Shown here in pieces: positions 8,526 to 49,970 of a DNA stretch of 64,000 nt. The translations under genes were made by a program, and so were the position numbers. This DNA is from a bacterium (lineage in GTDB: Bacteria; Bdellovibrionota_C; UBA2361; CALJRW01), in assembly GCA_031385045.1 (NCBI GenBank), contig JANNBC010000024.1:96001-160000 (forward strand), written 5' to 3'. Position 1 is the first letter of the stretch. The number at the start of each line of letters is the position of its first letter. The notes under the pieces were generated by a model. The model made no database searches. It saw nothing but the letters and a program-made list of their open reading frames with translations, and had not been told where the DNA came from.

Positions 8526-8556
8526 GATTCAAATTAACTTTTTAAATAACCTAGCT

Positions 8557-32345: not shown

Positions 32346-33413
32346 ATGTTGTCACTTAAATACAATAATGTTCGCATTGAGTCCTATGCCTTTAATCGTC
32401 CCTTGATCAAAGTTACTAGTGCGGAAATCGAAGATCGTTTAGCACCTATTTATCAGCGCTACTCCGTTCCTTTTGGAACCCTGGAAAGACTTAGCGGGAT
32501 TACGGAAAGAGGGTTTTTTGAAAAAGGAACTCGTCCTAGTCAAATTGCCACAGCTGCCGCAAAAGAAGCTATTGAAAAATCGGGTATCGCCATGGAAGAC
32601 ATTGGTGCGGTCATTAATTGTTCTGTCACTCGAGATTTTTTTGAACCAGCAACCGCTATTCTTGTGCATCGTAATCTTGGAATGAAAGAAGAGGTTCTTG
32701 CTTTTGATATTACCAATGCTTGTATTGGATTCTCTAATGGCATGATGTTAATTGCTAATATGATTGAGTCTGGTGTGATCAAGGCAGGTCTTGTGACATC
32801 TGGGGAGAATATGGCTCCAATTACAGACACCACATTTAATAAATTATTAAATGAAGATAGCTCTCATATCACTCGCTCTGAATTTGTAAAAATGTTACCA
32901 ACTTTTACTTTAGGCAGTGGAGGCGTAGCAATGGTTCTTTGCCATCAAGATTTAGCTACACAAAATCATCGCTTAGTTGCCAGTCATCCAAGAAGTGCCA
33001 GTGAGCATGCTGATTTATGTATTGGTAATGGTGACTTTTGCTTTACTCAGGCTGATGGCTTAGATCCATTGATGGAGACAGAGTCTCAGAAGTTAATTGC
33101 TGCTGCCGCTAAACTTGGAGCTCGGGCATGGCCAGAATTTTCTGAGTTAACTGGTTGGAGTGCGGAAGAATTAGATCATATAGTTTGTCATCAAATTGGG
33201 AAGCAGGTGAATGCTAGTTTTTACGGATCGCAAGGATTGCCTCATGATCGGGAGCATTTGTCATATCCTGAATATGGTAATTTGGTTTCCGCAGCATTGC
33301 CTTCGGCCTTAATTATGGCAGCTGAAAATAATAAGTTCATGACAGGAGATAAGATCTTGTTAACTGCTTATGGTAGTGGTTTAAATACAATTTTTTCCGG
33401 CATTATTTGGTGA
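32346..33413 (+). CDS. oleA: OleA acyl-CoA:acyl-CoA alkyltransferase (thiolase/KAS III fold)
   Basis: SVTRDFFEPATA (Glu), FDITNACIG (Cys), CHQIG (His); oleBCD context. Confidence 0.88.
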   Translation: MLSLKYNNVRIESYAFNRPLIKVTSAEIEDRLAPIYQRYSVPFGTLERLSGITERGFFEKGTRPSQIATAAAKEAIEKSGIAMEDIGAVINCSVTRDFFEPATAILVHRNLGMKEEVLAFDITNACIGFSNGMMLIANMIESGVIKAGLVTSGENMAPITDTTFNKLLNEDSSHITRSEFVKMLPTFTLGSGGVAMVLCHQDLATQNHRLVASHPRSASEHADLCIGNGDFCFTQADGLDPLMETESQKLIAAAAKLGARAWPEFSELTGWSAEELDHIVCHQIGKQVNASFYGSQGLPHDREHLSYPEYGNLVSAALPSALIMAAENNKFMTGDKILLTAYGSGLNTIFSGIIW

Positions 33414-35989
33414 ACCAACAAGAGATCGATCTGCTAAAGCAGTATTATCCATTTCCATCTAAATTTCTTACAATTGCCGGGCATCAAATGCATTACATTG
33501 ATGTTGGTTCGGGGCCAGTTGTAATTTTATTACATGGTAATCCTACTTGGGGTTTTTACTATCGAGAGTTAGTAAAAACTTTACAAGAAAACTATCGAGT
33601 GATTGTGCCTGATTTTTTGGGTATGGGACTTTCTGATCATCCGATTGATGCTAGCTTTCGGTCTTCTGATCGAATTCAGCACATGCAGGAATTTATTGAT
33701 TCTTTAGAGATTAAAAAGTTTTCTTTAGTAACCCATGATTGGGGTGGATCGATTGGTTCGGGATTAGCAATTCGTAACTTAGAAAAATTAGAGCGACTTG
33801 TATACTTAAATACAACGCTTACAGTTACAGAAAGTTTGCCGCTAATTATTAAAAGAGCAACAAAGCCTTTAATTGGAAACTTCCTAACTCAAAGAACTAA
33901 ACATTTCTTAAAATTAACAACTGAAGTTGGCGTTGCTAAAAAGTTACCGAAAGAGATTAAGAAGTGTTATTTATTACCTTACAAAACCAGAGCTAGACGC
34001 AAGGCAATTTGGGATTTTGTTGCGGACATTCCTTTTGATAGTAACCATCCAAGTTATCCAGCCATGTTAGATTTGGCAGAAAATATTGGTACCTTAAGTA
34101 AAATTCCTGTCCAAATTATTTGGGGATTAAAAGATCCTTGCTTCCATCGTGAGATGCTAAATAACGTAGCTGGATTATTCCCACAATCTCGTGTCTTAGA
34201 AATTCCGGATGCTTCACACTTAGTTCTAGAAGATGCTGAGGAACTTACCTGCAAAACAATCAAAAATTTTCTAGCTATGCCTTACGAGGAAGCGATTCAA
34301 CCGATTTATTCTGATGATGCTTCTACAGAAACTCCGGAAGACATTAACGCTTTTTTTCGAGCCTTCACTGCAAATGTGAAAAAACAGCCTTACACCTACG
34401 CGGCAATTGAACCAAGCTTTTTGATTGATGATTTAAAATATCGGCAGATTAATTTTAAAGATCTGGCCAAGACAATTAATAAATACCAGCGTGGATTAAG
34501 TGAATTAGGACTGAAGGCCGGGGATAAAGTTCTGATGCTAGTTCCACCGGGAATTAATTTTTTAACCTTAAGTTATGCGGTAATGGGGCGTGGAGCCGTG
34601 CCCGTATTTCTTGATCCTGGAATGGGCAAAGAGAAATTAATTAATTGCATTGAAGAATTAAAACCAGATGTTTTAATTGCTTCGTTGAAAGCGGAACTAT
34701 TTAGGTTTTTAAAGCCTAAAATATTTAGCTCGGTTCGATTTAGAATTGTTGCCAGTGAATGGTTTCTGGGTCGTGCTTATTCCTTATCATATTTAAAGAA
34801 GTTTGCTGAGCAAAGTATTCCAGCAATTGCCAATCCGGATCAGAATGTTTTAGTTGCTTATACCTCAGGTGCGACAGGTAGGCCGAAGGGCGTGGTTTAT
34901 GACAATCAAATGATTAATGCGCAGCTAAAGATTTTTAAAGAGCAGTTTGGATTAGAAGCTGGTAAAAAAGATTTGCCATTACTGCCTATCTTTTCTTTGT
35001 TTAATTTGGCCTTGGGTATTACTAGCGTAATCGCACCACTTAATCCTTCCAAGCCATTGGAATTAGATCCTCGAAAAGTTACCCAGATTATTAACGATCT
35101 AGGAATTAATTACTCATTTGGTTCTCCCACACTTTGGAGAAAGATTGCAGAATATTGTTTCCGTTCTCGGCAATCTTTATTGTCCCTCGAGAAAATATTT
35201 ATGGCTGGGGCTCCAGTTCCAGAAAGTACAGTGGGGTTGTTAAAAGATGTTGTTCCGAATGGAGAATCTTTCACACCTTATGGTGCAACAGAGGCTTTGC
35301 CTGTGACCTTAATTAGTGGTCAGGAAATTTTAGATCTAAAACGACAACCTGCCAAATCTGGCGAGCAAGGAACCCTTGTTGGAAAAGAAGTGAAAGGGGT
35401 TGAGATCAAAATTATTGCGCGACGATCTGATCAGACCACTGACTTTTCAGCAATTCAGGAGTTAGAACATTTAGCCATTGGTGAGATTATCGTTGCTGGT
35501 GATAATATTAGTAAAAAATATTTTGAACTTCCGGAAGCAAATAAAAAGTCTAAGATCCTAGAAGGTTCAAAGCTTTGGCATGTAATCGGTGATCTTGGAT
35601 ATTTAGATCTAAGTGGTAATTTATATTTCTGTGGACGAACCACTCATTTAGTTGAATATCAAGGAGCTATTTATTATAGCGAGCCCTGCGAAATTCCTTT
35701 TAACTTACATCCTAAGGTTTCTAGAACAGCTTTAGTTAAACTAGATTCTGGTGAGCCAGCAATTGTGATTGAGCCATTACCTCAGTACTATCCAGATACT
35801 AGCGAGAAAAAGGCAATTTTCGTGAAAGAGTTGAAGTTAATTGCTGGACAGCAGTCCTTCACTAAACACATTAATCGTTTTTTCTTTCACCAATCATTTC
35901 CAGTCGATCCGCGACATAATGCTAAGATTTATCGAGACATCTTAGGGGTTTGGGCTAGCCAACAAGAACCTAATTTGAGTGAAATATAA
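33407..35989 (+). CDS. OleB-OleC fusion (beta-lactone decarboxylase + beta-lactone synthetase)
   Basis: N-terminal HGNPTW, HDWGG (Asp nucleophile); C-terminal YTSGATGRPKG, TPYGATEALP, FPVDPRHNAKI. Confidence 0.88.
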   Translation: MVNQQEIDLLKQYYPFPSKFLTIAGHQMHYIDVGSGPVVILLHGNPTWGFYYRELVKTLQENYRVIVPDFLGMGLSDHPIDASFRSSDRIQHMQEFIDSLEIKKFSLVTHDWGGSIGSGLAIRNLEKLERLVYLNTTLTVTESLPLIIKRATKPLIGNFLTQRTKHFLKLTTEVGVAKKLPKEIKKCYLLPYKTRARRKAIWDFVADIPFDSNHPSYPAMLDLAENIGTLSKIPVQIIWGLKDPCFHREMLNNVAGLFPQSRVLEIPDASHLVLEDAEELTCKTIKNFLAMPYEEAIQPIYSDDASTETPEDINAFFRAFTANVKKQPYTYAAIEPSFLIDDLKYRQINFKDLAKTINKYQRGLSELGLKAGDKVLMLVPPGINFLTLSYAVMGRGAVPVFLDPGMGKEKLINCIEELKPDVLIASLKAELFRFLKPKIFSSVRFRIVASEWFLGRAYSLSYLKKFAEQSIPAIANPDQNVLVAYTSGATGRPKGVVYDNQMINAQLKIFKEQFGLEAGKKDLPLLPIFSLFNLALGITSVIAPLNPSKPLELDPRKVTQIINDLGINYSFGSPTLWRKIAEYCFRSRQSLLSLEKIFMAGAPVPESTVGLLKDVVPNGESFTPYGATEALPVTLISGQEILDLKRQPAKSGEQGTLVGKEVKGVEIKIIARRSDQTTDFSAIQELEHLAIGEIIVAGDNISKKYFELPEANKKSKILEGSKLWHVIGDLGYLDLSGNLYFCGRTTHLVEYQGAIYYSEPCEIPFNLHPKVSRTALVKLDSGEPAIVIEPLPQYYPDTSEKKAIFVKELKLIAGQQSFTKHINRFFFHQSFPVDPRHNAKIYRDILGVWASQQEPNLSEI

Positions 35990-36983
35990 AATGGCGAAAA
36001 TTCTTGTCACTGGTGGAAGTGGATTTGTTGGTCAAGCACTAGCGATTGCTCTTAGTCAGGCTGGTCATCAAGTAATTGCTTTAAGTCGTAAGCCTAATCC
36101 GGAACTACAAAAGCTTGGAATCCAAATTATTTCCTGTGATTTAGCAAAAAAAGATGAGATTGATTCTATCTCACTTACTGGGGTAGAAACTATTTTTCAT
36201 ACTGCTGCTTATGTAAAAATGTGGGGGAAATATAATAATTTCTATCAAACAAATTTCTTAGGAACCAAATATCTACTAGAAAAAGCTAAGGCTCAGCACG
36301 TTAAGAAATTTATTTATACTAGCTCTCCAAGTGTAATTGCAGACGGTAAAGATTTAAAGGGTATTAACGAAGCTTACTCCTATCCCAAAAAGTACAAAGC
36401 CTATTATCCACAAACAAAATCTTTGGCTGAAAAATTTGTTCTTGCAAATAACTCCAAGGATTTTAAAACTCTAGCACTTCGTCCGCATCTTATTTGGGGA
36501 CCAGGAGATACAAATCTAATTCCCACAATTTTAGCTAAGGCCAAATCTGGAAAATTAAAGATTATTGGTGATGGCCAGAATAAAGTAGATATTTGTTACA
36601 TTGAGGATTGTATCTCGGCACATCTTTGTGCTTACTCCGCACTTGATGCTAATCCGAAAGCTGCGGGTAAGGCTTATTTTATCAGCCAAGGGGAGCCAGT
36701 AATACTTTGGGATTGGATTAACCAAGTCTTAGAATTAAATGGTCTACCAAAAATTACCAGAAAGATACCTTTTAAGTTTGCTTATAGTTTGGCGACAGTT
36801 TTAGAGTTGCTTGCTAGGCTAATTCCTAGTGCTCCAGAACCAATTTTAACTCGATTTTTAGTTTCTGAAATGGCCACAGATCATTACTTTGACCTAGCCA
36901 GAGCCAAGGAATTTTTAGGTTTTCAGCCAAAGTATTCTGTTCAAGCAGGGATGGAAAAGACTTTTGGTAAATCTAATTGCTAA
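35979..36983 (+). CDS. oleD: OleD 2-alkyl-3-oxoalkanoate reductase (3-beta-HSD-like SDR)
   Basis: VTGGSGFVG, YTSSPSV, YPQTKSLAE, LRPHLIWGPGD. Confidence 0.88.
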   Translation: MKYKMAKILVTGGSGFVGQALAIALSQAGHQVIALSRKPNPELQKLGIQIISCDLAKKDEIDSISLTGVETIFHTAAYVKMWGKYNNFYQTNFLGTKYLLEKAKAQHVKKFIYTSSPSVIADGKDLKGINEAYSYPKKYKAYYPQTKSLAEKFVLANNSKDFKTLALRPHLIWGPGDTNLIPTILAKAKSGKLKIIGDGQNKVDICYIEDCISAHLCAYSALDANPKAAGKAYFISQGEPVILWDWINQVLELNGLPKITRKIPFKFAYSLATVLELLARLIPSAPEPILTRFLVSEMATDHYFDLARAKEFLGFQPKYSVQAGMEKTFGKSNC

Positions 36984-37886
36984 TTATTTAAAGCTACTTT
37001 GGATTTTAGTAATAAATTCTTCGGCTGGTAATTTAACAACTTGGTGTAAAAAATTAGCTAGGGGTAATTTTTTTTCAGTATCAGTTCGGGATCTAATTAA
37101 AGCTTGATAGAGAGATTTTCCGAGCTTTGTTTCTTCAATCTCATAATCAAGTCGATCGGCATGAGCTTTGACAATTTGTCTAGTGTCACTATCTGCAGGT
37201 AGTCCATGTCGAGCAATTGCTTGCATCATTCCTTTGCCAAGCTCTAAAAGTAATACAGGTAAAACAACTCCTGCAGCATTGACACTAGTCCCTCCGCTGG
37301 AATCATTTTCTAGATTTACAATGCCCGCTGGGGGAGTATGCTTTTGCATTTCTTTTAACATTTGCGGATTGATTGCCCAATAAAGAGATTCAGCGAAGGG
37401 CATGACCTTTTTATAGTTTAGAGCTAAGTCAGGATTTATTTGATCTAACTGATCATCTTTTAACATGTAGATATTTTGACAAGAGTGCCCAGCACCAGCA
37501 ATTAAAAAATTAATTAGGCGGCGTTTCTTAATTTCTAACTCAATCTCTGGAGTAATTGGATTAGCCGGTAAAAATGTAGCTAGAGCTAAGGGGTTCGCCT
37601 GAATTAATTGTTCTGGGTGATGTGGGATTTCCTGTGGAGAGACTAAACTTGCACTAAGTTTGATATCAGATTCATTAGCTTGAAATGCTTCATAAATCCA
37701 AGTTTTTGCTAGTTGTTGAAGTTTTTCTTGGTGAGGCTCTTCAATTGTTTGAATTCTAATAGAAGCTTGTTGCAAACTAAAGTTTTGGTTAAGGCCTGCT
37801 GCAATAAGTCTAGTCTGAAGATCCTCTTTGGCGATTGATGTTAAATGTTGGCTTATAGTAGACCCAAGAATTTCTGCGATATTCAT
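36984..37886 (-). CDS. Hypothetical protein
   Basis: 300-aa ORF; no recognised motif. Confidence 0.7.
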   Translation of the reverse strand: MNIAEILGSTISQHLTSIAKEDLQTRLIAAGLNQNFSLQQASIRIQTIEEPHQEKLQQLAKTWIYEAFQANESDIKLSASLVSPQEIPHHPEQLIQANPLALATFLPANPITPEIELEIKKRRLINFLIAGAGHSCQNIYMLKDDQLDQINPDLALNYKKVMPFAESLYWAINPQMLKEMQKHTPPAGIVNLENDSSGGTSVNAAGVVLPVLLLELGKGMMQAIARHGLPADSDTRQIVKAHADRLDYEIEETKLGKSLYQALIRSRTDTEKKLPLANFLHQVVKLPAEEFITKIQSSFK

Positions 37887-37988
37887 AGTAAGGTATTTCT
37901 AAACTAAGTTGTTTCTTAGTCAAATTTTGTTTGATTTTAGCTTATTAATTGAGTTATTATTTACAAGCTTAAAGTTATCGGAGATTTT

Positions 37989-38177
37989 ATGGTAATTATA
38001 GAAAGTAGCAGAACAGCTGCTGTAGCTCCTACCCCTGTTAGAGAACCTGCAGTTAGGCCAATTATTGAACCGCAACCAGTTACCCCAAAAGTACCAACGC
38101 CTGCACCGAATCCTGATAGTCCTTTTCGACTTCCTCCACATATAGATCCAAATGAAACAGAACGCCCGAAAGCTTAG
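37989..38177 (+). CDS. Small proline-rich peptide
   Basis: 62 aa, GGAG SD-like sequence upstream; ends 11 nt before the next gene, which has its own AGGAG. Confidence 0.6.
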   Translation: MVIIESSRTAAVAPTPVREPAVRPIIEPQPVTPKVPTPAPNPDSPFRLPPHIDPNETERPKA

Positions 38178-38188
38178 TTAAGGAGAAA

Positions 38189-39874
38189 TTGATGGAGCAA
38201 GTAGGGGTTAATAGTGATCTAGCTGCAATTAGGCTAGATCAAGAGTTTCTTGCAACGAATGATCTGAACAGAGTGGAGCAACTAATTTTAGCTGGTGCTA
38301 GAATTAACACCGTTAATGAAACTGGTCATACAAAGCTACACTTAGCTATTCAAAATAAACAATATGCAATTTTAGGTTTACTAATTGCGGCAGGTGCTGA
38401 TGCTAGCATTCGTTCTGTGAATAATTATGCGCCCTTAGCAATTGCTTTAAAGAATAAGGATGAGCGTGCTGTCTGGATGCTAGCAACTTTGGGATTTGAT
38501 TTAGATCAAAGTCATAATGGCATTGGAGCGCAATTTACTTTTCTAGCAAATCAATTACTCAAATTAAATAATAAAGGTTTTGATCCCTTAACTATCTTGC
38601 AAGAAGCATCAAGAATGTTCTTTCTTGAAGCGCCTGATTTAATGAAAGTATTCCCAGTTTTTCCAAAGCCCCCTGATGCCTTGATCACAGTACGAGACTT
38701 AGAAGTATTACATATCTTTGTAATGGCAGGAGCATTGCTTAGCTCGGTGGATCCAGATCACTATACTTCAGATTCCTTTACCTTTCGGCCTAAAGAAGCT
38801 TATCCTCATATATCTAGGCTTTTAAAAAATATTTTTAGTGTTGCAGTTGAAGATATCAGCAAAGTTAGTCAAGGATTGTTAAATTTTGAGCAGGCTGATT
38901 TGAAACATTTTAAGGACTTTTATCAGTTTGCTTTGAAATATCTAGTTGTTCCTGAAATCCTCAATCAAATTCCCGCAGGTTATTTATCAGAATTTAATAA
39001 ACATATTTTTCACAAAGTAGAGCAGGATATAGGAAAGTCCTTTCTGGAATATTTAACAATGCACCGACCAATTGATTTATTACAAAATTTAAATCAAATC
39101 TGGCACTTGCGAGTAAATGATTTTATTGCGCTAGCTCGGGATTTTTCTCCAGTTGGTGATTCCTGGAGGCCGGTACTTCCTAATTGTGAGATACCAACTG
39201 GCCTTCCTGAGCTTGCCGGATGGAAGATAATTAATTTAGTTAATGGTGAGCAACTGAGTCATGAGGGACAGGCCCTTCGTCATTGCGTTGCTGGATATTC
39301 GCGGTCTTGTATGGAACATAATAGCCATATTTGCTCAATTCGTGATCCAAGTAATGTCTCTCGATCAACATTTGAATTTAAAGTATTACTAGCCGATGAT
39401 GCCAATTATAAAGACCGAGTAGCATCATTTCGAAATGTAGGGTTTGCCATTCCGGAAACAGGAAGTGAGCCAGCACGAATATTTAGACTTGTTCAACATT
39501 CTGGAGAAAGAAATGCTAGTCCCTCGGAGGAATGTAAGAAGATTATTGAATATTTTATGGATCAAGTTAAGTTTGGTATTTATGATTTAAAACCACAAAC
39601 TATAGTTAACGAACAAGGTGTTGTAGATTTCACTCAAATTAGTTTTTTAGAAAATTATGTTGGGATTCGCAAGGATAGGTTTAATGCCGAGCGCTGTGAG
39701 CAAGTAATTGACTTATTCGCTGGTCGTAGTCATGGCTTTGTTAAATTGCGACATGGGCGAAAAAAATCATTAATTCCTAGAGCACTCTCAAGACAAGGCT
39801 ACGATGCTTTTTTTGAAGCTAGCGGACTACGAACTGCAATTAAGGGAAGTTTAGCAATTCATTTTATGAAGTAA
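38189..39874 (+). CDS. Ankyrin-repeat + PcfJ-like domain protein, paralog 1
   Basis: GHTKLHLAI, YAPLAIAL ankyrins; L-SHEGQALRHCVAGY...SHICSIR...STFE...G-RN. Confidence 0.8.
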   Translation: MMEQVGVNSDLAAIRLDQEFLATNDLNRVEQLILAGARINTVNETGHTKLHLAIQNKQYAILGLLIAAGADASIRSVNNYAPLAIALKNKDERAVWMLATLGFDLDQSHNGIGAQFTFLANQLLKLNNKGFDPLTILQEASRMFFLEAPDLMKVFPVFPKPPDALITVRDLEVLHIFVMAGALLSSVDPDHYTSDSFTFRPKEAYPHISRLLKNIFSVAVEDISKVSQGLLNFEQADLKHFKDFYQFALKYLVVPEILNQIPAGYLSEFNKHIFHKVEQDIGKSFLEYLTMHRPIDLLQNLNQIWHLRVNDFIALARDFSPVGDSWRPVLPNCEIPTGLPELAGWKIINLVNGEQLSHEGQALRHCVAGYSRSCMEHNSHICSIRDPSNVSRSTFEFKVLLADDANYKDRVASFRNVGFAIPETGSEPARIFRLVQHSGERNASPSEECKKIIEYFMDQVKFGIYDLKPQTIVNEQGVVDFTQISFLENYVGIRKDRFNAERCEQVIDLFAGRSHGFVKLRHGRKKSLIPRALSRQGYDAFFEASGLRTAIKGSLAIHFMK

Positions 39875-39887
39875 ATAGTCTTAAAAG

Positions 39888-40595
39888 CTAGGACTTACTT
39901 TTGTAGATTCTTCCTTTTAGAACCTCATCAAATAACTCAGGTAGTCTAGCACCATCGGAACACCAAGTTGCATTAAAAATTACAATCTCCTTCTGAAGTG
40001 ATAGCTGATGAAGTTGATCAATAACTTTTTTCATTGTTTCGCCCTGAAATGGATTAAAGAAATAAAAGACTGTGCCATCTTGATAATTTACTTCAGAGGC
40101 ATCAGCTAATTTAAAACTGACACTTTTGGAAAGATTTAAGTCCCGAGCCTTTTGCTCTGCCGCTGAGCAAAGTGCTTCCTGGATTTCTACGCCAACTGTT
40201 CGACAGCCTGAAGCCAAATGCATTAATAGGCAGGGGAAGCCTCCTCCTGAACCTAAATCATAAAATGTATCAGCCGGAGTCAGGTTACAATGTTTTAAAA
40301 GTACTTGTGGCAAGTAAGCCATAGACTTCATATAGGGAAAAGAATCAGTGTTATTAGGATAGCTAATTTGATTTAAACTTTGAAAGACATGATCATCAAA
40401 GCCTAATAGCTCTTCAACGCAACTTGGTCGCCATTCTCCTTTAAAGGTAATTTCTTTTTGAAATTCAGTAGGTGAAAGAGTCCCATCAATTATTTGAGTT
40501 CTAATTATTGCTAGTCTTTCTAGATACAGTTCTCGATTTAAATCAGAGATTTCTGCAAGTGGTAACTGCGAAGCGAGAGAGGGAGATACATGCAC
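39888..40595 (-). CDS. Class I methyltransferase, DOT1-like
   Basis: PYM, TFYDLGSGGG, VGVEIQ, ADA, TVFYFFNPF. Confidence 0.72.
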   Translation of the reverse strand: MHVSPSLASQLPLAEISDLNRELYLERLAIIRTQIIDGTLSPTEFQKEITFKGEWRPSCVEELLGFDDHVFQSLNQISYPNNTDSFPYMKSMAYLPQVLLKHCNLTPADTFYDLGSGGGFPCLLMHLASGCRTVGVEIQEALCSAAEQKARDLNLSKSVSFKLADASEVNYQDGTVFYFFNPFQGETMKKVIDQLHQLSLQKEIVIFNATWCSDGARLPELFDEVLKGRIYKSKS

Positions 40596-40654
40596 TAAAA
40601 GAATTTAACTAGAATCTTGTTCTTAATCAAATTTGAACCCCAAAATGACTAAAT

Positions 40655-40682
40655 TTGACTAGCTAGAGAATGTAATTACAAT
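40655..40682 (+). promoter_or_regulatory. Possible sigma70 promoter for the tandem Ank-PcfJ genes
   Basis: TTGACT-16nt-TACAAT, 30 nt before ATG 40712. Confidence 0.4.
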
Positions 40683-40711
40683 CATACTTCCAATTTCTGA
40701 TTTGTCTTACC

Positions 40712-42814
40712 ATGCTAAAAATTAGTGATTTGCTTGGCAGTTTACCCTTGGCTGAATTCGTTCAGCAAGATCCTAAGCTTAATCGCGATCTCCGAGAATA
40801 CAGTTTTACAAATTATGATCGGAATAGCTTACTTGGAAAACTTTCCGCTTTAAATTCTCAAGATTCTCACGGAAATGATTTAACTCACATGGCTGGTATT
40901 AGAGGGCAGTATAATACATTAAATTTTCTAAATTACTTTGAAAAATTAGGGATGGATATTAATCGTCCAAATAATTATGGTTTTACACCACTTCATTTAG
41001 CAGTAATTTTTGGACATCTAGATATTGTTTCAGAATTATTAAAGAAAGGTTTCGATTCCAACGTACTAATATCCTTAGCAACGAAATCTTTATCTTTTTT
41101 AAGTAACAAGAATTTTCAGCTACTTCAAAAAAGAACGGATCTAAAGTTATGGGATCAGGACTATGTAAAGTCACTGAGTCTGATCCAAATTGCCGCGATC
41201 ACAAAAGATCAAAGAATGATCTGTCTTTTACTTAAGTCTGGAGCAAATCCTGATTGTCAGATAGGAGATGAAAGCTTTGTAAGTTATTTGCTTAGTAATA
41301 ATTTTACAGATTCAGTTTGTACATTATTAAATACTGCAGAAAAAGATTTTCTTAAAAAAGCACAGTCGGAAGCGGGATTATTCAATTATTTTTTAAAGAA
41401 TCGAAATGATAATCTTTTAGGAATTTTAGTTAATAAAATTGGAATTCCCGAAGAAGTTTTAGCCAAAGACTTCTTTAATTTTTTAGCAAAAGTAACGGAC
41501 TCTGATTTTGAGAATTATTCTTGGAAGCCGCAATACTTTAAAAAACCTCATCAGTTATTAGTAGGACAAATATTTCGTGACCGTTTTGGCAGTTATGAAG
41601 CGGGATTATTAAATTTAAAAGACAAAAAGCAGGTCTTAACTTTAATAAGAAACATTAAAGTATTATTGACTGATTTTAATGCTTTTAAAAAGGAATTAGT
41701 AAAACTTGTTCCCGAGTATCAATCACTTCTTGATCAGCTTAGCCCTAAAGGTAAAATTCAAAATAAGAGTTTTGGACAAGTAGTTTTTTATATTGCTAAA
41801 TTAGCGGAACAAGTAGATTGCGATACTCCTTTCCAAGAATCGAGCCACTTTTACAGAATTCTTGCTAATACAATTCGCGAGCAACAGAGTTTAAGGATTT
41901 CCTGGTCAGAATATTTACACCATAAGATTGAAGGAAATATTTACAAACTTGATGGTTTTAATGATGTTCTAAATGAATATCAGAATGCTGTAATTTACCC
42001 TTCTCTGGTTAATCGATTATTAGAACAAGGATTTAAATTTGAAGATATTAGGAAAAAAGATCTTTGGTTAAGCTATTCTAGTAAGGAAATCGCCCTGGAA
42101 CATTTATTAGATGACAAATCAATTGGAAATATTTTTAGGTTTAATACTCTGTGGCACAGAACGGATATGCGTTTACCAGAAGCAGCATGCCCTGACTTAG
42201 AAAATAATAAGTGGGCAGCGATCATTCCCAATTCTAGTTGGCCAATGGATTCTAGATATACTGTGGTGAATTTAAGAACAGGTGCTGAATTAGCGCAAGA
42301 AGGGAATGATATGAGGCATTGTGTAAAAGGTCGTACATATTCCTGTAGTAATGCTGATAGTCATATTTTAAGTATTCGCGATCATGGAAAATCATTGGCA
42401 ACAGTTGAAGTATCTCTTAGCGAACTTAAAAATGGCAAGATCGGCTTGATAGTTAAAGAAATTAAGGGGCCACGTAATTGCAAGCCATCTGTACAAGCAG
42501 AACATGTTATGAAAAATTTTTTGGAGGCAATTGATCAGGGAGCATTAGTTATTAATAAAATTGACCGATTGGAAACTCAAAGAAAAAATAGAGAAGCTGA
42601 TTCTCATAGAGATTATATTCTGAAAACCTATGTCCGACCAGGGGTTGCTCCTGATGGCGCAATTCAACATTACGCGGGGCTTCGAATATATATGAATAGA
42701 GATGGACAAGAAAAATTTATGTTAGGAGCCTTTCGACCAGCAGGTTATTTACTGCATGAAATTATATCAAAAAGAATTGCTCAATTAAAGTTTAGATTAC
42801 CTGAAGCGGCATAA
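40712..42814 (+). CDS. Ankyrin-repeat + PcfJ-like domain protein, paralog 2
   Basis: GFTPLHLAV; LWHR; ELAQEGNDMRHCV...SHILSIR...ATVE...GPRN. Confidence 0.82.
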   Translation: MLKISDLLGSLPLAEFVQQDPKLNRDLREYSFTNYDRNSLLGKLSALNSQDSHGNDLTHMAGIRGQYNTLNFLNYFEKLGMDINRPNNYGFTPLHLAVIFGHLDIVSELLKKGFDSNVLISLATKSLSFLSNKNFQLLQKRTDLKLWDQDYVKSLSLIQIAAITKDQRMICLLLKSGANPDCQIGDESFVSYLLSNNFTDSVCTLLNTAEKDFLKKAQSEAGLFNYFLKNRNDNLLGILVNKIGIPEEVLAKDFFNFLAKVTDSDFENYSWKPQYFKKPHQLLVGQIFRDRFGSYEAGLLNLKDKKQVLTLIRNIKVLLTDFNAFKKELVKLVPEYQSLLDQLSPKGKIQNKSFGQVVFYIAKLAEQVDCDTPFQESSHFYRILANTIREQQSLRISWSEYLHHKIEGNIYKLDGFNDVLNEYQNAVIYPSLVNRLLEQGFKFEDIRKKDLWLSYSSKEIALEHLLDDKSIGNIFRFNTLWHRTDMRLPEAACPDLENNKWAAIIPNSSWPMDSRYTVVNLRTGAELAQEGNDMRHCVKGRTYSCSNADSHILSIRDHGKSLATVEVSLSELKNGKIGLIVKEIKGPRNCKPSVQAEHVMKNFLEAIDQGALVINKIDRLETQRKNREADSHRDYILKTYVRPGVAPDGAIQHYAGLRIYMNRDGQEKFMLGAFRPAGYLLHEIISKRIAQLKFRLPEAA

Positions 42815-42840
42815 TTTTTTAAAAACTTAGAGATTTTCAA

Positions 42841-44931
42841 ATGTCATCCGTAACTTATTTGCTTGGAAAGATACCGGTAGCTGAAAATGTTACTCCAACT
42901 TCGGATTATGATGCATGCTTCCGTAGATTTCACTTCTCGGTAAGAGAACGCAGTAAAAATCTTGATCAAGTTAAAGCATTAAATGTTCAAGATAGTTATG
43001 CGAACGATCTATCACATGTTGCTAGTATTCGAGGACGTTTAGATGCATTACAATTACTAGCAAAACGTGGGATGGATATTGATCGTCCCAATAATTTAGG
43101 ATTTACACCACTAACGATTGCCGTGCTTTTGGGACATCACCAAGTAGTTGCTGGGTTATTAAAATTAGGGGCATCTCCAGACAATTTATTCCCCCTCTAC
43201 TCTAAAGCACCAGTCTTCTTTGGGGATAAATATGTTCATTTTTTCAAAAATCGAATTAACCAACCTAGAGTCCTTGAAACTTTACCACTAGAGTTAACTT
43301 CCTTGCAATTCGCAACATTAATAAAAGATGAAAAAATGATCTGCTTATTACTTGAAAATAAAGCAAATCCGAATAGCAAATTACTTGGGAAATCAATCGT
43401 TACCTATTTTTTCTCTGCTAATATGAAAGAAGCAATAGAAAAGTTTATTTCAATGGCTAGTTCAGAAGCAATTAAGCTAGTTCAAGCAGAATTTCCGTTA
43501 GCTCTTACCTGTTTAAAACACAAAAAATTTAATTTAGTTAAAGATATAATTGATAAAGTAGGTGTAGATCGGGATACTTTTACGGATGAATTTTTTGATG
43601 CTTGGAGCTCAGAAAACTTTTTAATCGGCTATAAAATGAAGAGCCGACTTAATTTATTAAATAAATATTTAATAAAAAAAATTAGCACAAGTGAACTTGG
43701 AGCAGGTTTAGAGATTTTAAAGGATTTTCCTTTAGAACATAAAATAAATGAAAAAATTAGACTCATGCGTATTCTAGTTAATGGCTTTGATACTATAAAA
43801 AAGGGAATTCTTGCCGAAGAACCAAAATTTGAAAAACTTTTAAATCAATTAATACCACATGGGAAATTGCAAAATAAGAACTTTGGACAAGTAGTTTGCT
43901 ATGTTTCCTTTTTACTTGCTGCGATCCATCCTGAAGATAATCACCTTAGTATTCCTCATTTATATAAGATATTAACAAATACTATCAGGGAACAGCAACA
44001 TTTAAGAATGACTTGGTCGCAATATGTCAGCCAAAAAATAGAAGCTAATGTTTATAAAATTGATGGTTTTGTTGATGTCATCAAAGAATATCAAAATGCT
44101 GTAATTTATCCTTCCTTAGTTAATAAACTTTTAAAAGAAGGGTTGGATTTTAGGTCGATTATTGCCCAAGAGACAGAATTAGATCGGCGAGCATTAAAGC
44201 TGGCACTTGAGCATATTGTTGATGACAAATCGATTGGTAGTCTTTTTCGCTTTAATACTCTTTGGCATCGACCGGATATGAGACTGCCTGATGCTAGTTG
44301 TCCTGATCTGGAAAATATCAAATGGCAACCTGTACTACCAAATGGTTTATGGCAAATGGATTCAAGGTTTAGTGTTGTAAATCTACGAAGTGGAAGAGAG
44401 TTAACAGAGGAAGGAGTTGCAATGAAGCACTGTGTTAGTTCTAGAGCTGACCGTTGTGCTAGGGGAGAGTCGCATGTTTTAAGTATTAAAGATCAAGGTC
44501 GATCGATTGCAACAGTAGAAGTTTCAATTGTAGACAACCAAGAGAAAGGTAGAACTTTGCAAGTAATTGAATTTAGAGGAGTTGCCAACCAAGCAGCGCC
44601 AAAAGAAGCGATTATTGTATTAGATAGAATGATTGCAGAAGTTGCTGAAAAGAGATTAAGAATTAATGATATTCCAATAAAAGAACTTCAAAAAGCTACT
44701 AGTGAAGCAGATGCTTTAAATTCCTATATTAGAAAATCTTATGTTCGCCCAGGAGTTGAGCCGCAAGGTGCCTTAACTCACTATGCCGGATTAAAAATAT
44801 TTATGAATCGAACTGATCAAAAGAAATTTCTGCTTGGTGCATTTAGAGAGGATGGTTATGATCTAGGAAGACTAATCGCCTGCAGTATTGATCAACTCGA
44901 AATCAAAGAGCAGGCATTAACAGATCTATAA
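42841..44931 (+). CDS. Ankyrin-repeat + PcfJ-like domain protein, paralog 3
   Basis: GFTPLTIAV; LWHR; ELTEEGVAMKHCV...SHVLSIK...ATVE...GVAN. Confidence 0.82.
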   Translation: MSSVTYLLGKIPVAENVTPTSDYDACFRRFHFSVRERSKNLDQVKALNVQDSYANDLSHVASIRGRLDALQLLAKRGMDIDRPNNLGFTPLTIAVLLGHHQVVAGLLKLGASPDNLFPLYSKAPVFFGDKYVHFFKNRINQPRVLETLPLELTSLQFATLIKDEKMICLLLENKANPNSKLLGKSIVTYFFSANMKEAIEKFISMASSEAIKLVQAEFPLALTCLKHKKFNLVKDIIDKVGVDRDTFTDEFFDAWSSENFLIGYKMKSRLNLLNKYLIKKISTSELGAGLEILKDFPLEHKINEKIRLMRILVNGFDTIKKGILAEEPKFEKLLNQLIPHGKLQNKNFGQVVCYVSFLLAAIHPEDNHLSIPHLYKILTNTIREQQHLRMTWSQYVSQKIEANVYKIDGFVDVIKEYQNAVIYPSLVNKLLKEGLDFRSIIAQETELDRRALKLALEHIVDDKSIGSLFRFNTLWHRPDMRLPDASCPDLENIKWQPVLPNGLWQMDSRFSVVNLRSGRELTEEGVAMKHCVSSRADRCARGESHVLSIKDQGRSIATVEVSIVDNQEKGRTLQVIEFRGVANQAAPKEAIIVLDRMIAEVAEKRLRINDIPIKELQKATSEADALNSYIRKSYVRPGVEPQGALTHYAGLKIFMNRTDQKKFLLGAFREDGYDLGRLIACSIDQLEIKEQALTDL

Positions 44932-44946
44932 ATTTATTAAGTATTT

Positions 44947-46971
44947 ATGAAAAAAGTCTCAAAGTTTTTCCAAGATATAAATTTAGCTGAACATGTATTA
45001 CCAGATGCGAACAATGATATAATTTTAGCTAATTGTGTATTTAAAACTAAAAATAAGCTGGAACTAAAGCTTATTAGTCATCTAAATATACAGGATTCTT
45101 ATGGTAATGATTTGACCCACTATGCTGCACTAAGAAACCAACTAAGTCTTTTGTTATATTTAGAGAGTCGGGGATTAAACTTAGATCGACCTAATATTCA
45201 TGGATTAACTCCACTACATTTAGCATTAATGACCGAGTCGCAGCAGGCAACTACTTTCTTGATTAAACGGGGAGCAAATTTAGAACAAGTATTTAATCTT
45301 CCTAAGCCAGATCAAGAACTCTTTTTTGCACCTAGCAGTTTAGTTAAGAAGATTGTTAATCGATCCTTATCGATGTGTGAACAGCCAGAACTCAGTGCAA
45401 TTCAACTAGCAGCTTATAATTTAGATAGAGTTGCTCTAAAGCAAATGTTTTTAGCTAAGTCGAATCTGAGTTCAAATATGAACGGAGAGGACTTAGGTAG
45501 TTTTCTTTTACGAGAAGATCGCGAAATTTTCCGATCGTATCTGGAACATTTAAATTTAAATAAGCTCTTTGATATTTGGAAAGAAATTGATTGCGACGAG
45601 CGAATAAAATTGTCTGGGAAAGTTAGGGAGTCTTTAAATAATTCAGAGTCAATAATCAAAACCGAGCTATCGCAAGATTTATCTGAGACTTTGAACCGTG
45701 GGGATTTTCTTCACTTAGTTTTAAAAACTAAAATAAATCAGCTTTTTTGTTCAAAAACAGAGCCGTTGATTGAACATTTTTGTAAGTCAAATTGTGATGG
45801 CGTTCAAGCTTTATATTATCTAAAAGAGCTTTATAATAATTTTAGAATTATCGAAGATCAATTAATTGACAGATTTCCGGCCTCAAAACCTATTCTTCAT
45901 GACTTAGTGCATCAGGGTAGGATAGTTAATAAGAGATTTGGGGAAGTGATCCTATATATACTAGCAACAATTGGAGAAATTTTACCAGATGAAGATCCGA
46001 TGCAAAGTGGAGCCTTTATTCCAATTCTTGAGAATACAATCAAAGAACAGCAGCGTTTGAAACTTAGTTGGGCAGAGTATGTCTCTCAAAAAATTTTAGC
46101 AAATAATTATAAAATCTCCGGTTTAGGGGATTTATTCAATGAATATCGCAACTCTATAATTTTCCCCTGTTTAGTAAATAAATTATTGGAAACGGGACAA
46201 GATATTTCTGCAATTATGGAAAATTCAAAGTCATTAGATCGAATTGCATCTAAAATTACTCTGGAGCAAATCATCCAAGATAAATCACTGGGAAGTTTAT
46301 TTCGATTTAATACTCTTTGGCATCGTGCTGATATGCGTTTGCCTGAATCGGCCTGTCCCGATCTAGAACTTATTGGATGGGCACAAATTATCCCAGGTGG
46401 AGTTTGGCAGATGGATAGCACCTTTAAGATTGTGGAATTAAATTCTGGCAAAAAACTGGAAATTGAAGGTCAGGAGATGCATCATTGCGTAAGGAGTCGG
46501 ACTGGTAGTTGTGTTGATGGCAGATCACATATTTTTAGTATTAAAGAAAATAATTCTAGTATCGCTACTATTGAAATCCGCTTAGATAAAAGTAGTTCGG
46601 GACATGTAGCACTGGAAGTCACTGAAATGAAGGGGCCTGGCAATGCTCCTTGCTCACAAGCTGCCAAGAATGTTTGGTCAAATTTCATTTCCAAATATAA
46701 TAATGGAGACATCTCCCTAAATTTTTCAGCACTTGGCGCATCTAAAGATGAACAGCAATATTTTACTCCATTGATGAACAATTATTTAGCTAAGACATAT
46801 GTGCGACCTGGCAGACATCCGATTGGAGCTATAAATCATTATGCCGAATTAAAAATATGGATGAATCGTACTAACGAAGTGAAGTTTCTTTTTGGAGCTT
46901 TTCGGTCAAAAGACTTTAGACCTCATCAAATTTTAAAAGATGCCATTGAACATAATACCGAGGCGGCCTAA
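44947..46971 (+). CDS. Ankyrin-repeat + PcfJ-like domain protein, paralog 4
   Basis: GLTPLHLAL; LWHR; LEIEGQEMHHCV...SHIFSIK...ATIE...GPGN. Confidence 0.82.
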   Translation: MKKVSKFFQDINLAEHVLPDANNDIILANCVFKTKNKLELKLISHLNIQDSYGNDLTHYAALRNQLSLLLYLESRGLNLDRPNIHGLTPLHLALMTESQQATTFLIKRGANLEQVFNLPKPDQELFFAPSSLVKKIVNRSLSMCEQPELSAIQLAAYNLDRVALKQMFLAKSNLSSNMNGEDLGSFLLREDREIFRSYLEHLNLNKLFDIWKEIDCDERIKLSGKVRESLNNSESIIKTELSQDLSETLNRGDFLHLVLKTKINQLFCSKTEPLIEHFCKSNCDGVQALYYLKELYNNFRIIEDQLIDRFPASKPILHDLVHQGRIVNKRFGEVILYILATIGEILPDEDPMQSGAFIPILENTIKEQQRLKLSWAEYVSQKILANNYKISGLGDLFNEYRNSIIFPCLVNKLLETGQDISAIMENSKSLDRIASKITLEQIIQDKSLGSLFRFNTLWHRADMRLPESACPDLELIGWAQIIPGGVWQMDSTFKIVELNSGKKLEIEGQEMHHCVRSRTGSCVDGRSHIFSIKENNSSIATIEIRLDKSSSGHVALEVTEMKGPGNAPCSQAAKNVWSNFISKYNNGDISLNFSALGASKDEQQYFTPLMNNYLAKTYVRPGRHPIGAINHYAELKIWMNRTNEVKFLFGAFRSKDFRPHQILKDAIEHNTEAA

Positions 46972-47241
46972 GTTTAATGTTTGGGGAAACCAAAACACCT
47001 AAAATGCGCTAAAGCCTATTGGGTTTGAATATACTTTCACCTGCACGTCACCTTGTGCCATGCCTCCTCTTGTAATCGCAACTTACTAAATATCCATAAA
47101 ATAAATAGTAAATTGGACATGTTAGCTTTCTATTTTGGGTTTTGAACCTGCTTACTAATTAACTTCATCATAATAGCTGTTTACAATACCTAAAATTTTA
47201 CTGGCTACATGTAAGATCAATTTTTATAAAAGAAAAATTCT

Positions 47242-47709
47242 ATGACAGCAGGATTAGCAGCATTAGGACAGAGTGTCGATATATCCAAATTAGATGGGGA
47301 CACTCGCTTGGCTCGAGTAGTTCAGCATTATATTGCTGTTGCTAATAGTTTAGTAAATGCTAGCGAAGTTTCCCGAGAGTTATCAGATCACTGGCCATTA
47401 ATTACTAGAGAACTTAGTCAGCCGGGGGCGGTTCACATGGATCCGGCAGTTGATGGTGGGCTAAAGATTGGTGGGTACACTTTTCGTGTTAACCAAGAAA
47501 CAAAGTTAATTGAAGTCCATGATTATCATTTTGGTGAGGGCGAGCCATTGTTTACACTTTCTAGTGCAGGTCAGATTGCTAGGAATTATCAAAATCCTAG
47601 CGATGTTAATTATAGTGAAGATCCGGTTCGAATGGTTTTTAGAGAGATTGGTAAATTATATACCCCAGAGACCTTACGACAAGCTTTTGAATGGGAACCT
47701 AAGGCTTAA
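47242..47709 (+). CDS. Hypothetical protein
   Basis: 155-aa ORF; no recognised motif. Confidence 0.6.
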   Translation: MTAGLAALGQSVDISKLDGDTRLARVVQHYIAVANSLVNASEVSRELSDHWPLITRELSQPGAVHMDPAVDGGLKIGGYTFRVNQETKLIEVHDYHFGEGEPLFTLSSAGQIARNYQNPSDVNYSEDPVRMVFREIGKLYTPETLRQAFEWEPKA

Positions 47710-47953
47710 GATTAGATTGGGTTAGTTTTGATTTTATTAGTTGCAGTTCTTCTAAAGTAGATAAATTACTTTGTTTTTGCTTTGCTAGTCTGTACCAATA
47801 ATTAGCATTGGAGTTATCACCTTCAATCTTATGCAAGATTGCATGAATCCAATAGGCATAAGGCTGATCTAGATCCTGAACAATCTGGTGAGCATCTTCC
47901 CATTTACCAAGTATGGCTAGATCCACTGCTTGGATAATGAGCTGCTGTGACAT
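47699..47953 (-). CDS. Small helical hypothetical protein
   Basis: WEDAHQIVQD...WIHAILHKIEGD-SNA-YWY pattern; TAATG-coupled to the upstream AsmA gene. Confidence 0.75.
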   Translation of the reverse strand: MSQQLIIQAVDLAILGKWEDAHQIVQDLDQPYAYWIHAILHKIEGDNSNANYWYRLAKQKQSNLSTLEELQLIKSKLTQSNLKP

Positions 47954-49869
47954 TAAAATCCAAATTTATTTAATAAATCTTTTCCAGTTTCTCCTAGCTT
48001 ATCCTTAACTTTTTCTTTGACTTTATCTTGGATTGCTTTAGTTGCAGCAAGTTCAATTAGACGTTTTAGGTTTGGAACAATGATTAAATGTTTTTGTGTG
48101 CCCCTAATCACTAATGGTAAGACTAGTTGGCCATTTTTATCTAGAATTTTCTCTAGTTCCTTAGTCTTGGACGCAAGGGCAGCAGAAAATGCTTTGTTAA
48201 AAGTAATTTCTGAATTTAGATTAATAGTTTTATCTAAACCAATTGTTCCGTCTGCCGTAAGATTAAAGATTGTACTAAGCAGAGTTAAAGAATTAAGTTT
48301 CAAACTAGAGTTAGCTAAAGTAAAGTTAGTTTTTAGCTCATTAATTGCAGTATCCTCACCAGTAACTTCTCCACGAAGTGATTCCGGAACAGCATCTAAT
48401 AAAGATCCAGCAATAAAAGGTAAGTCTTTAACTACTGCCAATACTTTAGCAGGAAGATTAGTGCCTTTTAATGTTCCCTTAGTTAATAGAAGCTCTCCCT
48501 GAGCTCCAAGTGAACTCATTAGTTTTGGCCCCAGACTTCCATTTGCTTTTAAGTTTAATGAATTAAGAGTCCCAGCAAAAGTTTCTAAAATTGGCATCGG
48601 CAGTGCTTGATAGGCTTGTCCTAAGTCCAGTGCTGTCAATTTCGCAGTTGTTTGAAAAGTTTGTGATTTTAAATTAGTTCCACCAGAAATATTTGCTGTT
48701 CCACCAAAAATTTTGACTAAGGCATTTTCAACTGTGGCATCAGATCCTGCTAAGTTGGCATTAAAGGTAGCAGTCATAGGAGCATTACCTACAAGTAGAT
48801 TTAAATCATTTGAGGAGACATTTTGTTTTGTTAAGTTTGCTTGTAAATTTAAGTTGCCTCTCAGCTTAGTAACGGCAATGCTACCAAGATTTGCCATGAT
48901 GTCGGCAAGTTTAATTGTGCCATTGGCATTAATTTCTTTAGCATTGTTAATTGCTATTTTGATTTCAGGAGTTACACTTCCAGCGACTCCCAGGGCTTTT
49001 AATGCCGGAGTAAAGGCGGTTAGAGCACTAGCAACTTTTGCTAAATCAAGATTTTTGCCTGTTAAGCTAGTCGTACCCTGAAAGGCCTTAAGATTAAAAT
49101 CAGAGTTTACTTGAAATTCTGTATCTAATAATTTCGCAACAAGTGTTGGTAAGCTGAGATTTTGTTCCTTTAAATCAAAAGTTATCTCCTTAGATTCTAA
49201 TGCTAACTTTGTAATTCCAGTGATTTCAGTATCAACGGTTAATTCACAAAGCTTAGCCAGACTTCCTGCTAGTTCCACAACGGCACCAACACTTAGGGGA
49301 GTTATAATAAATTTTTTGTTGCTCACTTGATCTTGAAACTCAATTGTTGCATCGCTAATTTGAAATTTTTCTAAGGCAATTTCAATCCCACCTGGGATTG
49401 ATTGGGGAGCTGTAGTCTTTGTTAGAGCAGACTCAGAGGGAGTTGAAGCGGGCAGCCCTTCGCTGTTTTTTTCAGGCACCGGAAGTCCATCGATCTGAAT
49501 GCCAGTTTTAGTTTTAATAATTTTAATGCTAGGACTTGTTACTGTTAGTTCCTTTATTAATAATTTCTTTTTAAGTAATTCTAGAATTGCAACGTCTAGT
49601 TTAATACCCTTAATGGCTATTCCCGGAGAGGTCGCGGTCTTACCAATTGTTAGGCTTTCAACATCCACAATCGCATTTGGAAAAACTTTGAGGTTTAGAG
49701 CGCCCAGTTGAACTGGTGTTTTAAGGAGGACACTAATCTTTGATTCTAGAAATGGCTTATTGTTATTAAGTATCTTTTGACCATTTTGAACTAGGTAAAA
49801 GCTAAGGCCTGAGATTAGTACGATCATGACAACGAGCAGAATTAATGCTAATTTAACAATTTTCTTCAT
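47953..49869 (-). CDS. AsmA family protein
   Basis: N-terminal membrane anchor, extended beta-rich body, C-terminal LPLVIRGT...PNL. Confidence 0.8.
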   Translation of the reverse strand: MKKIVKLALILLVVMIVLISGLSFYLVQNGQKILNNNKPFLESKISVLLKTPVQLGALNLKVFPNAIVDVESLTIGKTATSPGIAIKGIKLDVAILELLKKKLLIKELTVTSPSIKIIKTKTGIQIDGLPVPEKNSEGLPASTPSESALTKTTAPQSIPGGIEIALEKFQISDATIEFQDQVSNKKFIITPLSVGAVVELAGSLAKLCELTVDTEITGITKLALESKEITFDLKEQNLSLPTLVAKLLDTEFQVNSDFNLKAFQGTTSLTGKNLDLAKVASALTAFTPALKALGVAGSVTPEIKIAINNAKEINANGTIKLADIMANLGSIAVTKLRGNLNLQANLTKQNVSSNDLNLLVGNAPMTATFNANLAGSDATVENALVKIFGGTANISGGTNLKSQTFQTTAKLTALDLGQAYQALPMPILETFAGTLNSLNLKANGSLGPKLMSSLGAQGELLLTKGTLKGTNLPAKVLAVVKDLPFIAGSLLDAVPESLRGEVTGEDTAINELKTNFTLANSSLKLNSLTLLSTIFNLTADGTIGLDKTINLNSEITFNKAFSAALASKTKELEKILDKNGQLVLPLVIRGTQKHLIIVPNLKRLIELAATKAIQDKVKEKVKDKLGETGKDLLNKFGF

Positions 49870-49970
49870 AACAAGAACTTTATTTTAAAAAGAATTTTTG
49901 GCACCGAGCTTAAGCCTCATTGAAATGTAATTAATTTAGAGAGCAGTTAAATTGGATTAGTTGAATTATT

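Follow-up and report, generated by a model that had tools for sequence, protein, structure and literature searches.

In this study, we analyzed an array of four genes in a 64,000-nt stretch of DNA (the window; positions 96,001 to 160,000 of contig JANNBC010000024.1, assembly GCA_031385045.1) from a member of Bdellovibrionota_C. Each gene encodes ankyrin repeats, a helical domain and a C-terminal PcfJ-like domain (PF14284) in one polypeptide. The four proteins are named P0001 to P0004, and P0003 is the reference for residue numbers (Table 1). P0002, P0003 and P0004 form a triplet with gaps of 26 nt (P0002/P0003) and 15 nt (P0003/P0004). All four open reading frames (ORFs) are on the plus strand and free of stops. 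An earlier note on this DNA, made from the sequence alone, had listed the four ORFs with their lengths, the two gaps, a Pro-rich ORF and a DOT1-like methyltransferase, all of which we found as described. The host genome (G000) comprises 2.83 Mb and is 95% complete, and the sequence records covering the array are labelled freshwater sediment or sediment metagenome.

Table 1 Features of the ankyrin-PcfJ locus, in window positions.
Feature	Position	Strand	Remarks
P0001, ankyrin + helical + PcfJ	38189..39874	+	561 aa from TTG; ATG one codon on gives 560 aa
P0002, ankyrin + helical + PcfJ, triplet member 1	40712..42814	+	700 aa; 42% identity with P0003
P0003, ankyrin + helical + PcfJ, triplet member 2	42841..44931	+	696 aa; modelled in two parts
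P0004, ankyrin + helical + PcfJ, triplet member 3	44947..46971	+	674 aa
P0003 Pfam-detectable ankyrin repeats, residues 40-115	42958..43185	+	Pfam; 42-53% identity in triplet
P0003 predicted degenerate ankyrin-like helical solenoid, residues ~116-316	43186..43788	+	model pLDDT 86; 13-29% identity in triplet
P0003 helical domain and W-H linker, residues 328-495	43822..44325	+	all-helical in model
P0003 PcfJ domain, residues 496-610, predicted truncated GNAT-like fold	44326..44670	+	model, fold matches, alignment
62-aa Pro-rich ORF directly upstream of P0001	37989..38177	+	GGAG ribosome-binding-like site; no relative found
DOT1-like class I methyltransferase between P0001 and triplet	39888..40595	-	PF08123, 38.2 bits
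Variable 10.7-kb block	36984..47709		bounded by conserved NAD-dependent dehydrogenase gene and 84-aa gene

The ankyrin and PcfJ identities proposed in the earlier note are borne out by Pfam profiles in all four proteins. PF14284 scored 26.8, 31.4, 44.9 and 30.7 bits in P0001, P0002, P0003 and P0004, respectively (cut-off 25), and the matches span at most about positions 60-141 of the 147 in the profile. Ank_2 scored 34.5, 44.7 and 40.2 bits in P0001, P0002 and P0003 (cut-off 27.3). In P0004, Ank_2 is below its cut-off (26.8 bits), but Ank_4 (25.4, cut-off 22.7) and Ank (21.8, cut-off 21.1) are above theirs. The array proteins are the only matches to PF14284 and Ank_2 in G000. An alignment confirmed the quoted C-terminal motifs (W-H, EGxx[LM]xHCV, Cx4SHxxSI[RK], TxE and GxxN) in all four. 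P0001 shares approximately 21-24% identity with each triplet member, compared with 34-42% within the triplet; it has the canonical HCVxGY...Q motif and belongs to a subclade other than that of the triplet. Crude hydropathy gave no signal-peptide-like or membrane stretch in the array proteins. The NCBIfam models of the Dot/Icm ankyrin effectors AnkH, AnkX and AnkY scored 20.7-27.4 bits against cut-offs of 600-1400, over the ankyrin part only, and PADLOC matches were also confined to this part (PDC-M72A), with none over the PcfJ part. No description of an ankyrin-PcfJ architecture turned up in the literature searched (mostly non-subscription papers, main text), and the word PcfJ does not occur in the main text of two papers on polyvalent proteins or jumbo phages (PMC5512222 and PMC7824862). 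The architecture of repeat solenoid, helical domain and PcfJ is real and, as the earlier note had supposed, apparently undescribed.

Residue conservation was counted in 99 aligned sequences of approximately 20% identity. W495, L521, E524 and C531 are present in all 99 rows, H530, T558 and Q/E577 in 98, S548 in 97, H476 and C539 in 95, N583 in 94, D412 in 92, and H545 in 79. E524, H530, C531, C539, H545, S548, T558, E577 and N583 lie in the PcfJ domain of P0003, and D412, W475, H476 and W495, which lie in the helical domain and W-H linker, are kept in 90-99 rows. H545 is replaced by Gln, Asn or Arg in 20 of the 99 rows, while H530-C531 stays. The conserved His-Cys module claimed earlier is thus evident (98 and 99 rows), together with near-invariant polar residues. 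Positions 535 and 577 co-vary (Y/Q in 85 rows and R/E in 10), suggesting that both face one pocket. Nine of the ten R/E rows belong to one clade and P0076 lies outside it, which points to about two events.

An AlphaFold model of the C-terminal 369 residues of P0003, based on the 99 rows, has a predicted local distance difference test score (pLDDT) of 92.3 and a predicted template modelling score of 0.86. Among the rows listed by Foldseek and VIA-align, its PcfJ domain (residues 496-610) matched GNAT structures only. Almost all Foldseek rows listed were acetyltransferases (E ≥ 0.028). VIA-align gave a best Z of 7.9 in a wide search (3pzj, root-mean-square deviation 3.6, 104 residues) and 8.2 in a second look (8gxk, 3.0, 102 residues), and 42 of the top 50 rows of the wide search were titled acetyltransferase or GNAT or named such an enzyme. 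The matches extend to target residue ~110-150, through the β5 equivalent, and cover the N-terminal two thirds of the GNAT fold. In a comparison with viral models, the best rows were PcfJ-like proteins (E 1.8e-7). The PcfJ domain is therefore predicted to adopt a truncated GNAT-like fold. This agrees with the fold mentioned in the earlier note as far as the model matches go, at a middling score, and neither a canonical coenzyme A (CoA) motif nor a sequence or profile link accompanied it. Six PF00583 matches were found in G000, none of them in the array, and a PDB sequence search with two profiles gave no match at E 10. A homodimer model of the C-terminal 369 residues with CoA scored 0.02, which speaks neither for nor against. 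Membership in the GNAT acyltransferases is not established; the modelled fold is suggestive, and motif A is missing.

A second model, of P0003 residues 116-490, has a pLDDT of 86 (40 rows). Its residues ~121-316 gave weak matches, mostly to ankyrin and ARM solenoids (Foldseek E ≥ 0.089; best Z 8.3, below the level that the VIA tool trusts for repeats), suggesting that degenerate repeats extend the array into this part, which would be the diversified one. Neither model gave a fold match for the helical domain (residues 328-495), with the match lists taken up by other domains.

Identity within the triplet differs strongly by region: 42-53% in the ankyrins, 19-29% behind them, 13-19% in residues 201-327, 40-51% in the helical domain, 69-73% in the W-H linker (residues 456-500, the best conserved stretch), and 37-42% in the PcfJ domain. 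The predicted degenerate solenoid is the most variable part of the triplet and a candidate target-binding surface. The diversified targeting regions proposed in the earlier note are thus not the Pfam-detectable ankyrins, which are no more divergent than the PcfJ domain, but may well be the degenerate solenoid. Synonymous sites are saturated (proportion of synonymous differences, pS, ~0.7), and frames and motifs are intact. The regional ratio of nonsynonymous to synonymous rates (dN/dS), a check named in the earlier note, was calculated and is not interpretable because dS is saturated; dN is 0.18-0.25 in the W-H linker versus approximately 1 or more in the variable part. The GC content at third codon positions (GC3) of three array genes is 0.22-0.25, which is 1-2 standard deviations (SD) below the genome mean of 0.28.

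The ankyrin-PcfJ genes belong to a wider, sporadic family. A profile of the C-terminal 365 positions, searched against 1.84 billion representatives, gave 12 matches at E 1e-30, 776 at 1e-10 and 6,168 at 1e-3. Repeats were scanned with Pfam thresholds of 1e-5 and 1e-6 in 124 of the 146 listed non-window matches (the 22 shorter ones, ≤485 aa, were omitted) and in two relatives from other searches. Of these 126 proteins, 48 have repeats, 35 of the ankyrin type and 13 with leucine-rich repeats (LRR). The two forms are interspersed on the tree, indicating that the N-terminal module is swappable. The distribution is patchy: a PF14284 search was positive in one of 41 genomes (G000 itself), and, with the family profile, 6 of 91 genomes were positive in the order and 10 of 124 in the phylum, both counts including G000. 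Genome G092 has four family matches on four contigs, G089, of the same order as G000, holds the close relative P0006, and one relative is assigned by NCBI to an Alphaproteobacteria bacterium. Scans for related loci gave 1 of 29 candidate stretches on genome contigs, 0 of 12 on viral contigs and 0 of 89 on metagenome contigs. The exact degenerate motif of the clade occurs in seven metagenome stretches, six of which encode it in an ORF, and in no viral stretch, a zero that does not show viral absence, as exact patterns miss most relatives.

At five metagenome loci, two of them near-identical, LRR-type relatives are single genes amid housekeeping or unannotated genes (glmS, ATP synthase, parB and electron transfer flavoprotein). 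At a high-GC metagenome locus, the PcfJ gene adjoins a Strawberry-notch-type helicase gene. In three genomes of one genus, a large ankyrin-PcfJ-family gene adjoins the gene for a tandem winged-helix, AsnC/MarR-like regulator (L023:12379-13440, L024:8621-9610 and L025:10598-11680). Two relatives are giants: P0014 (2,136 aa) has two PcfJ units and ankyrins, and P0132 (3,332 aa) has three PcfJ units and a topoisomerase IB core. PcfJ matches also include 36 viral models at E ≤ 0.001, mostly titled PcfJ-like, and 483 plasmid records. In Yersinia phage YerA41, a weak PcfJ-region match (E 3e-4) is annotated as a structural protein. In sections of the YerA41 paper, structural means particle-associated and applies to 63 proteins (PMC7354516), and the label suggests that the PcfJ-region protein may be packaged in the particle. 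Parts of another report place a PcfJ-like motif upstream of the variable region in some targets of diversity-generating retroelements of the candidate phyla radiation (PMC5758913).

The earlier note had read the array as a fourfold tandem expansion. The best matches of P0001 are P0032 and P0073, not the neighbouring triplet. In a FastTree phylogeny of 153 rows, the triplet lies within a nine-member clade (support 99), and P0001 is placed elsewhere on a long branch. Smaller IQ-TREE runs (LG+G4, 36 rows) rejected monophyly of the four proteins in an approximately unbiased (AU) test (p-AU 0.001), with the long branch of P0001 as a caveat. The array instead combines a triplet in tandem with a single, distantly related member of the family. 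P0002 and P0003 group with P0005, a foreign protein, and the AU test disfavours a triplet that excludes it (p-AU 0.018); therefore, the triplet duplications are old or involved exchange. The triplet would have arisen by old tandem duplication, and the P0001 gene would have arrived separately in the same variable block.

This block is missing as a whole from the congeneric genome G001 (97% complete), in which the flanks are syntenic with 62-97% amino-acid identity. The G001 site holds approximately 1.5 kb, in which a pilin-like gene is accompanied by partial copies of the two flanking genes (C16:28509-30167, L020), which may be either a rearrangement scar or an assembly artefact. Gain and loss of the block cannot be polarised between the two genomes. 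No integrase or transposase ORF was recognised in the block, and DNA repeats at the locus reflect paralog similarity only (60-80%), with no mobile-element terminal repeats seen among them. Promoter-like sites were not in excess (42 seen versus 40.1 by chance), and no RNA dataset holding the array sequence was listed. In run X1, positions 33001-50503 lie on a single 25,120-nt contig with zero differing letters and flat depth; the array is thus no obvious mis-assembly, with the caveat that this DNA may itself derive from X1. Runs from a second study gave short contigs, mostly 99% identical, covering parts of the array region. Short joints in runs X2 and X3 were rejected as chance matches, with ~20 matching letters and long unrelated ends.

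A multi-gene system including the methyltransferase and the Pro-rich peptide is not supported. The DOT1-like protein has matches in eight other genomes, none of which is among the nine other carriers of the PcfJ family. For the Pro-rich peptide, the only positive among 124 genomes was its own, although a low-complexity query of 62 aa is insensitive. Neither gave a tblastn match in the loci of relatives (L005-L053). Because these neighbours do not travel with the relatives, the ankyrin-PcfJ genes are single-gene units in a variable block and not an operonic system, and the DOT1-like methyltransferase is probably a bystander of the same block. With neither a catalytic-part match in PADLOC nor a conserved gene set, the array is not a catalogued anti-phage system.

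Other genes of the block and window are mentioned here for completeness. Two orphan ORFs in the block (300 aa, 36984-37886; 155 aa, 47242-47709) have no Pfam, PHROG, NCBIfam or PADLOC match. Upstream, positions 32346-36983 contain ketosynthase-like, fused hydrolase/AMP-ligase and NAD-dependent dehydrogenase genes, which are conserved in G001 and G002 and which we take to be an oleA-oleBC-oleD olefin biosynthesis cluster. A 447-aa methyltransferase with an unannotated N-terminal half (30884-32227) is absent from the syntenic G001 locus and has a distant paralog on contig C33. A 995-aa ORF (52856-55843), also found in G001, fuses LpxB (lipid A disaccharide synthase) to an MsbA-like ABC transporter. 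Two short ORFs of glycosyltransferase family 4 (7746-9581; 259 and 223 aa) look truncated.

G000 has two dispersed type III export gene sets (SctV/FlhA-type, SctR-, SctU- and SctJ-like), mostly below equivalog cut-offs, and Tad-like genes beside one of them. Flagellin and the SctC secretin had no match in G000, where GspD and PilQ are the only secretin matches. These flagellum-free, secretin-free sets with Tad-like genes resemble the Kil/T3SS* predation machinery of Myxococcus as outlined in parts of PMC12075869. The type III loci are at C7:7899-22342 (L028, L029), C38:43355-47648 (L030), C13:18834-22651 (L031) and C8:3320-9375 (L032); one SctV gene is fused into a Tad-like/kinase/FHA/PP2C cluster, FliA-like sigma genes are nearby, and the sets are common to relatives. 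Elsewhere, a lone TraG/VirD4-type coupling protein gene lies between glycosyltransferase genes and an integrase-bearing element (C46:14785-17163, L103), with no type IV cluster evident there by eye. The type III and Tad genes provide an opportunity for export and are not evidence of it.

We propose, with a probability of roughly 0.4, that the array proteins are stand-alone, repeat-targeted, cysteine-dependent enzymes whose target for modification is a protein inside another cell. The ankyrin solenoid, fused via the helical domain to PcfJ, would bind the protein target, with its variable part setting the targeting, and PcfJ would covalently modify the target through the conserved His-Cys pocket. 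Given the non-canonical CoA-binding loop, the chemistry would most likely be acyl transfer via a cysteine thioester instead of the ternary route usual in GNAT enzymes. The proteins might be delivered into a prey bacterium or protist, possibly via needle-less type III export gates and a Tad-like pilus. In favour of this proposal are the near-invariant polar set, the co-variation of positions 535 and 577 and the GNAT-like fold matches. The swappable N-terminal module, the patchy distribution, the frames and motifs kept intact despite saturated synonymous sites, the lack of a signal-peptide-like stretch and the presence of type III/Tad genes are also in line with the proposed enzymes.

Several points weigh against this proposal. 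The fold scores are middling (according to the tool, a Z under 8 may reflect a common arrangement), and the matches end after the β5 equivalent. Motif A of GNAT enzymes is a CoA-pyrophosphate loop, Q/R-x-x-G-x-G/A, after β4; at this position, taken from the secondary structure of the model after the fourth strand, the loop is replaced and the family consensus is [QE]-x-x-G-x-x-N-x-x-P. No GNAT Pfam match was found in the array proteins at E 0.05, and hhalign against 24 motif-cut GNAT-like fragments, several of them not true GNATs, gave a non-significant probability of 0.9%. The two Cys and three His residues might just as well bind a metal. As for delivery, VirB4 and the type VI secretion protein TssB were not found in the 95% complete G000, and T3SS*-like genes are also present in the array-less G001, so the array genes are not singled out as cargo. 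Moreover, the array encodes the only Ank_2 proteins of the genome, unlike the situation in ankyrin-rich symbionts that dwell in eukaryotes.

The proteins may instead act inside their producer as anti-phage or anti-plasmid factors, with the repeats sensing an invader protein and PcfJ modifying an invader or host target. PcfJ is a domain of mobile elements, as its viral and plasmid matches illustrate, and the variable-block site, the patchy distribution and the lack of an export signal by hydropathy all fit defence genes. However, PADLOC recognised nothing of the PcfJ part, and next to the relatives lie housekeeping genes or a winged-helix regulator gene rather than defence genes; we consider this role unlikely, yet the first to turn to after the modifying effector, which is the most likely reading. 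Ranked next, and unlikely too, is that PcfJ serves for binding only, stabilised by a metal and without catalysis, which would make the proteins adaptors or self-protection factors similar to Bd3460, a lone exported ankyrin-only protein that inhibits the predator's own peptidases. H476, H530, C531, C539 and H545 could ligate zinc, the canonical CoA loop is absent, and the weak fold matches obtained with the solenoid include Bd3460 (5cea, Z 7.7). Yet the invariant Glu, Ser, Thr, Gln/Glu and Asn exceed the needs of a structural zinc site, the putative ligand H545 is the one lost where H530-C531 is kept, and the array proteins lack the signal-peptide-like stretch expected of an exported protein.

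The enzymes or effectors could also use other chemistry, either as a GNAT-like scaffold turned into a cysteine hydrolase (protease, deamidase or deacylase) or by acting on a nucleic acid or small molecule. A His-Cys-Glu set is typical of thiol hydrolases, motif A is absent, and the match lists include decarboxylases (malonyl-CoA decarboxylase and the AprA GNAT), which the GNAT fold also serves. On the other hand, no papain-like or other protease fold was among the matches listed, and adjacent His-Cys residues in a loop do not have the usual spacing of a protease triad, so that we regard such chemistry as improbable and place it after the metal-binding adaptor. Last in rank, neutral leftovers of mobile elements, amplified by chance and without current use, would account for the absence of the block from the G001 locus and for the low GC3 of three genes. 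The four intact frames, the motif residues kept despite saturated synonymous sites, the low dN of the W-H linker relative to the variable part, and the lack of a recognised integrase or transposase ORF make this very improbable.

A broader and speculative extension of the proposed effector role, which we consider doubtful, is that PcfJ may be a catalytic branch of the GNAT fold that has gone unrecognised and uses a His-Cys chemistry of its own. Predatory and host-associated bacteria would have acquired it from phages and plasmids more than once and fitted it with ankyrin or LRR aiming modules, and here the proteins would be needle-less type III/Tad cargo. PcfJ occurs on very many phages and plasmids, yet no functional study of it turned up in the literature searched. 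PcfJ chemistry can be tested directly on soluble single-chain versions, which have an aiming module and few invariant residues. If exported, the array proteins would be cargo candidates for the type III system without a needle found in predatory bacteria. As regards novelty, repeat-plus-enzyme effectors and local expansion are a familiar design.

The array proteins share the PcfJ domain with the PF14284 family of conjugative plasmids and tailed phages, including the E-G-x-x-[LM]-x-H-C-V, T-x-E and G-x-x-N motifs, and the viral models and plasmid records that match them best bear PcfJ titles. They differ from this family in being chromosomal and fused to ankyrins (LRR in relatives), and in having a clade-specific helical domain with the conserved D, W-H and second Cys; the triplet also has Y535R and Q577E. 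With GNAT enzymes, the nearest being RimJ/RimL-type N-acetyltransferases (8gxk, 3pzj, 1z9u and 1s7f), PcfJ shares a predicted core of β1-α1-α2-β2-β3-β4-α3(-β5) with Z 7.2-8.2 over ~100 residues. It differs from them in sequence (4-20% identity), in lacking the Q/RxxGxG/A loop and any structural match to the α4-β6 end, and in the invariant His-Cys of its α1-α2 loop. Legionella-type effectors (AnkX, AnkH, AnkY and the GNAT effector VipF) have the same design of a repeat targeting module and a catalytic domain, and VipF is among the GNAT fold matches of the PcfJ model (Z 7.3), whereas the array has a different enzyme domain and its host has no VirB4 match. Within Bdellovibrionota-type bacteria, Bdellovibrio bacteriovorus has Bd3460, an ankyrin self-protection protein (PMC4686830). 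Bd3460 is a weak fold match to the array solenoid; the array proteins differ from it in carrying a putative catalytic domain.

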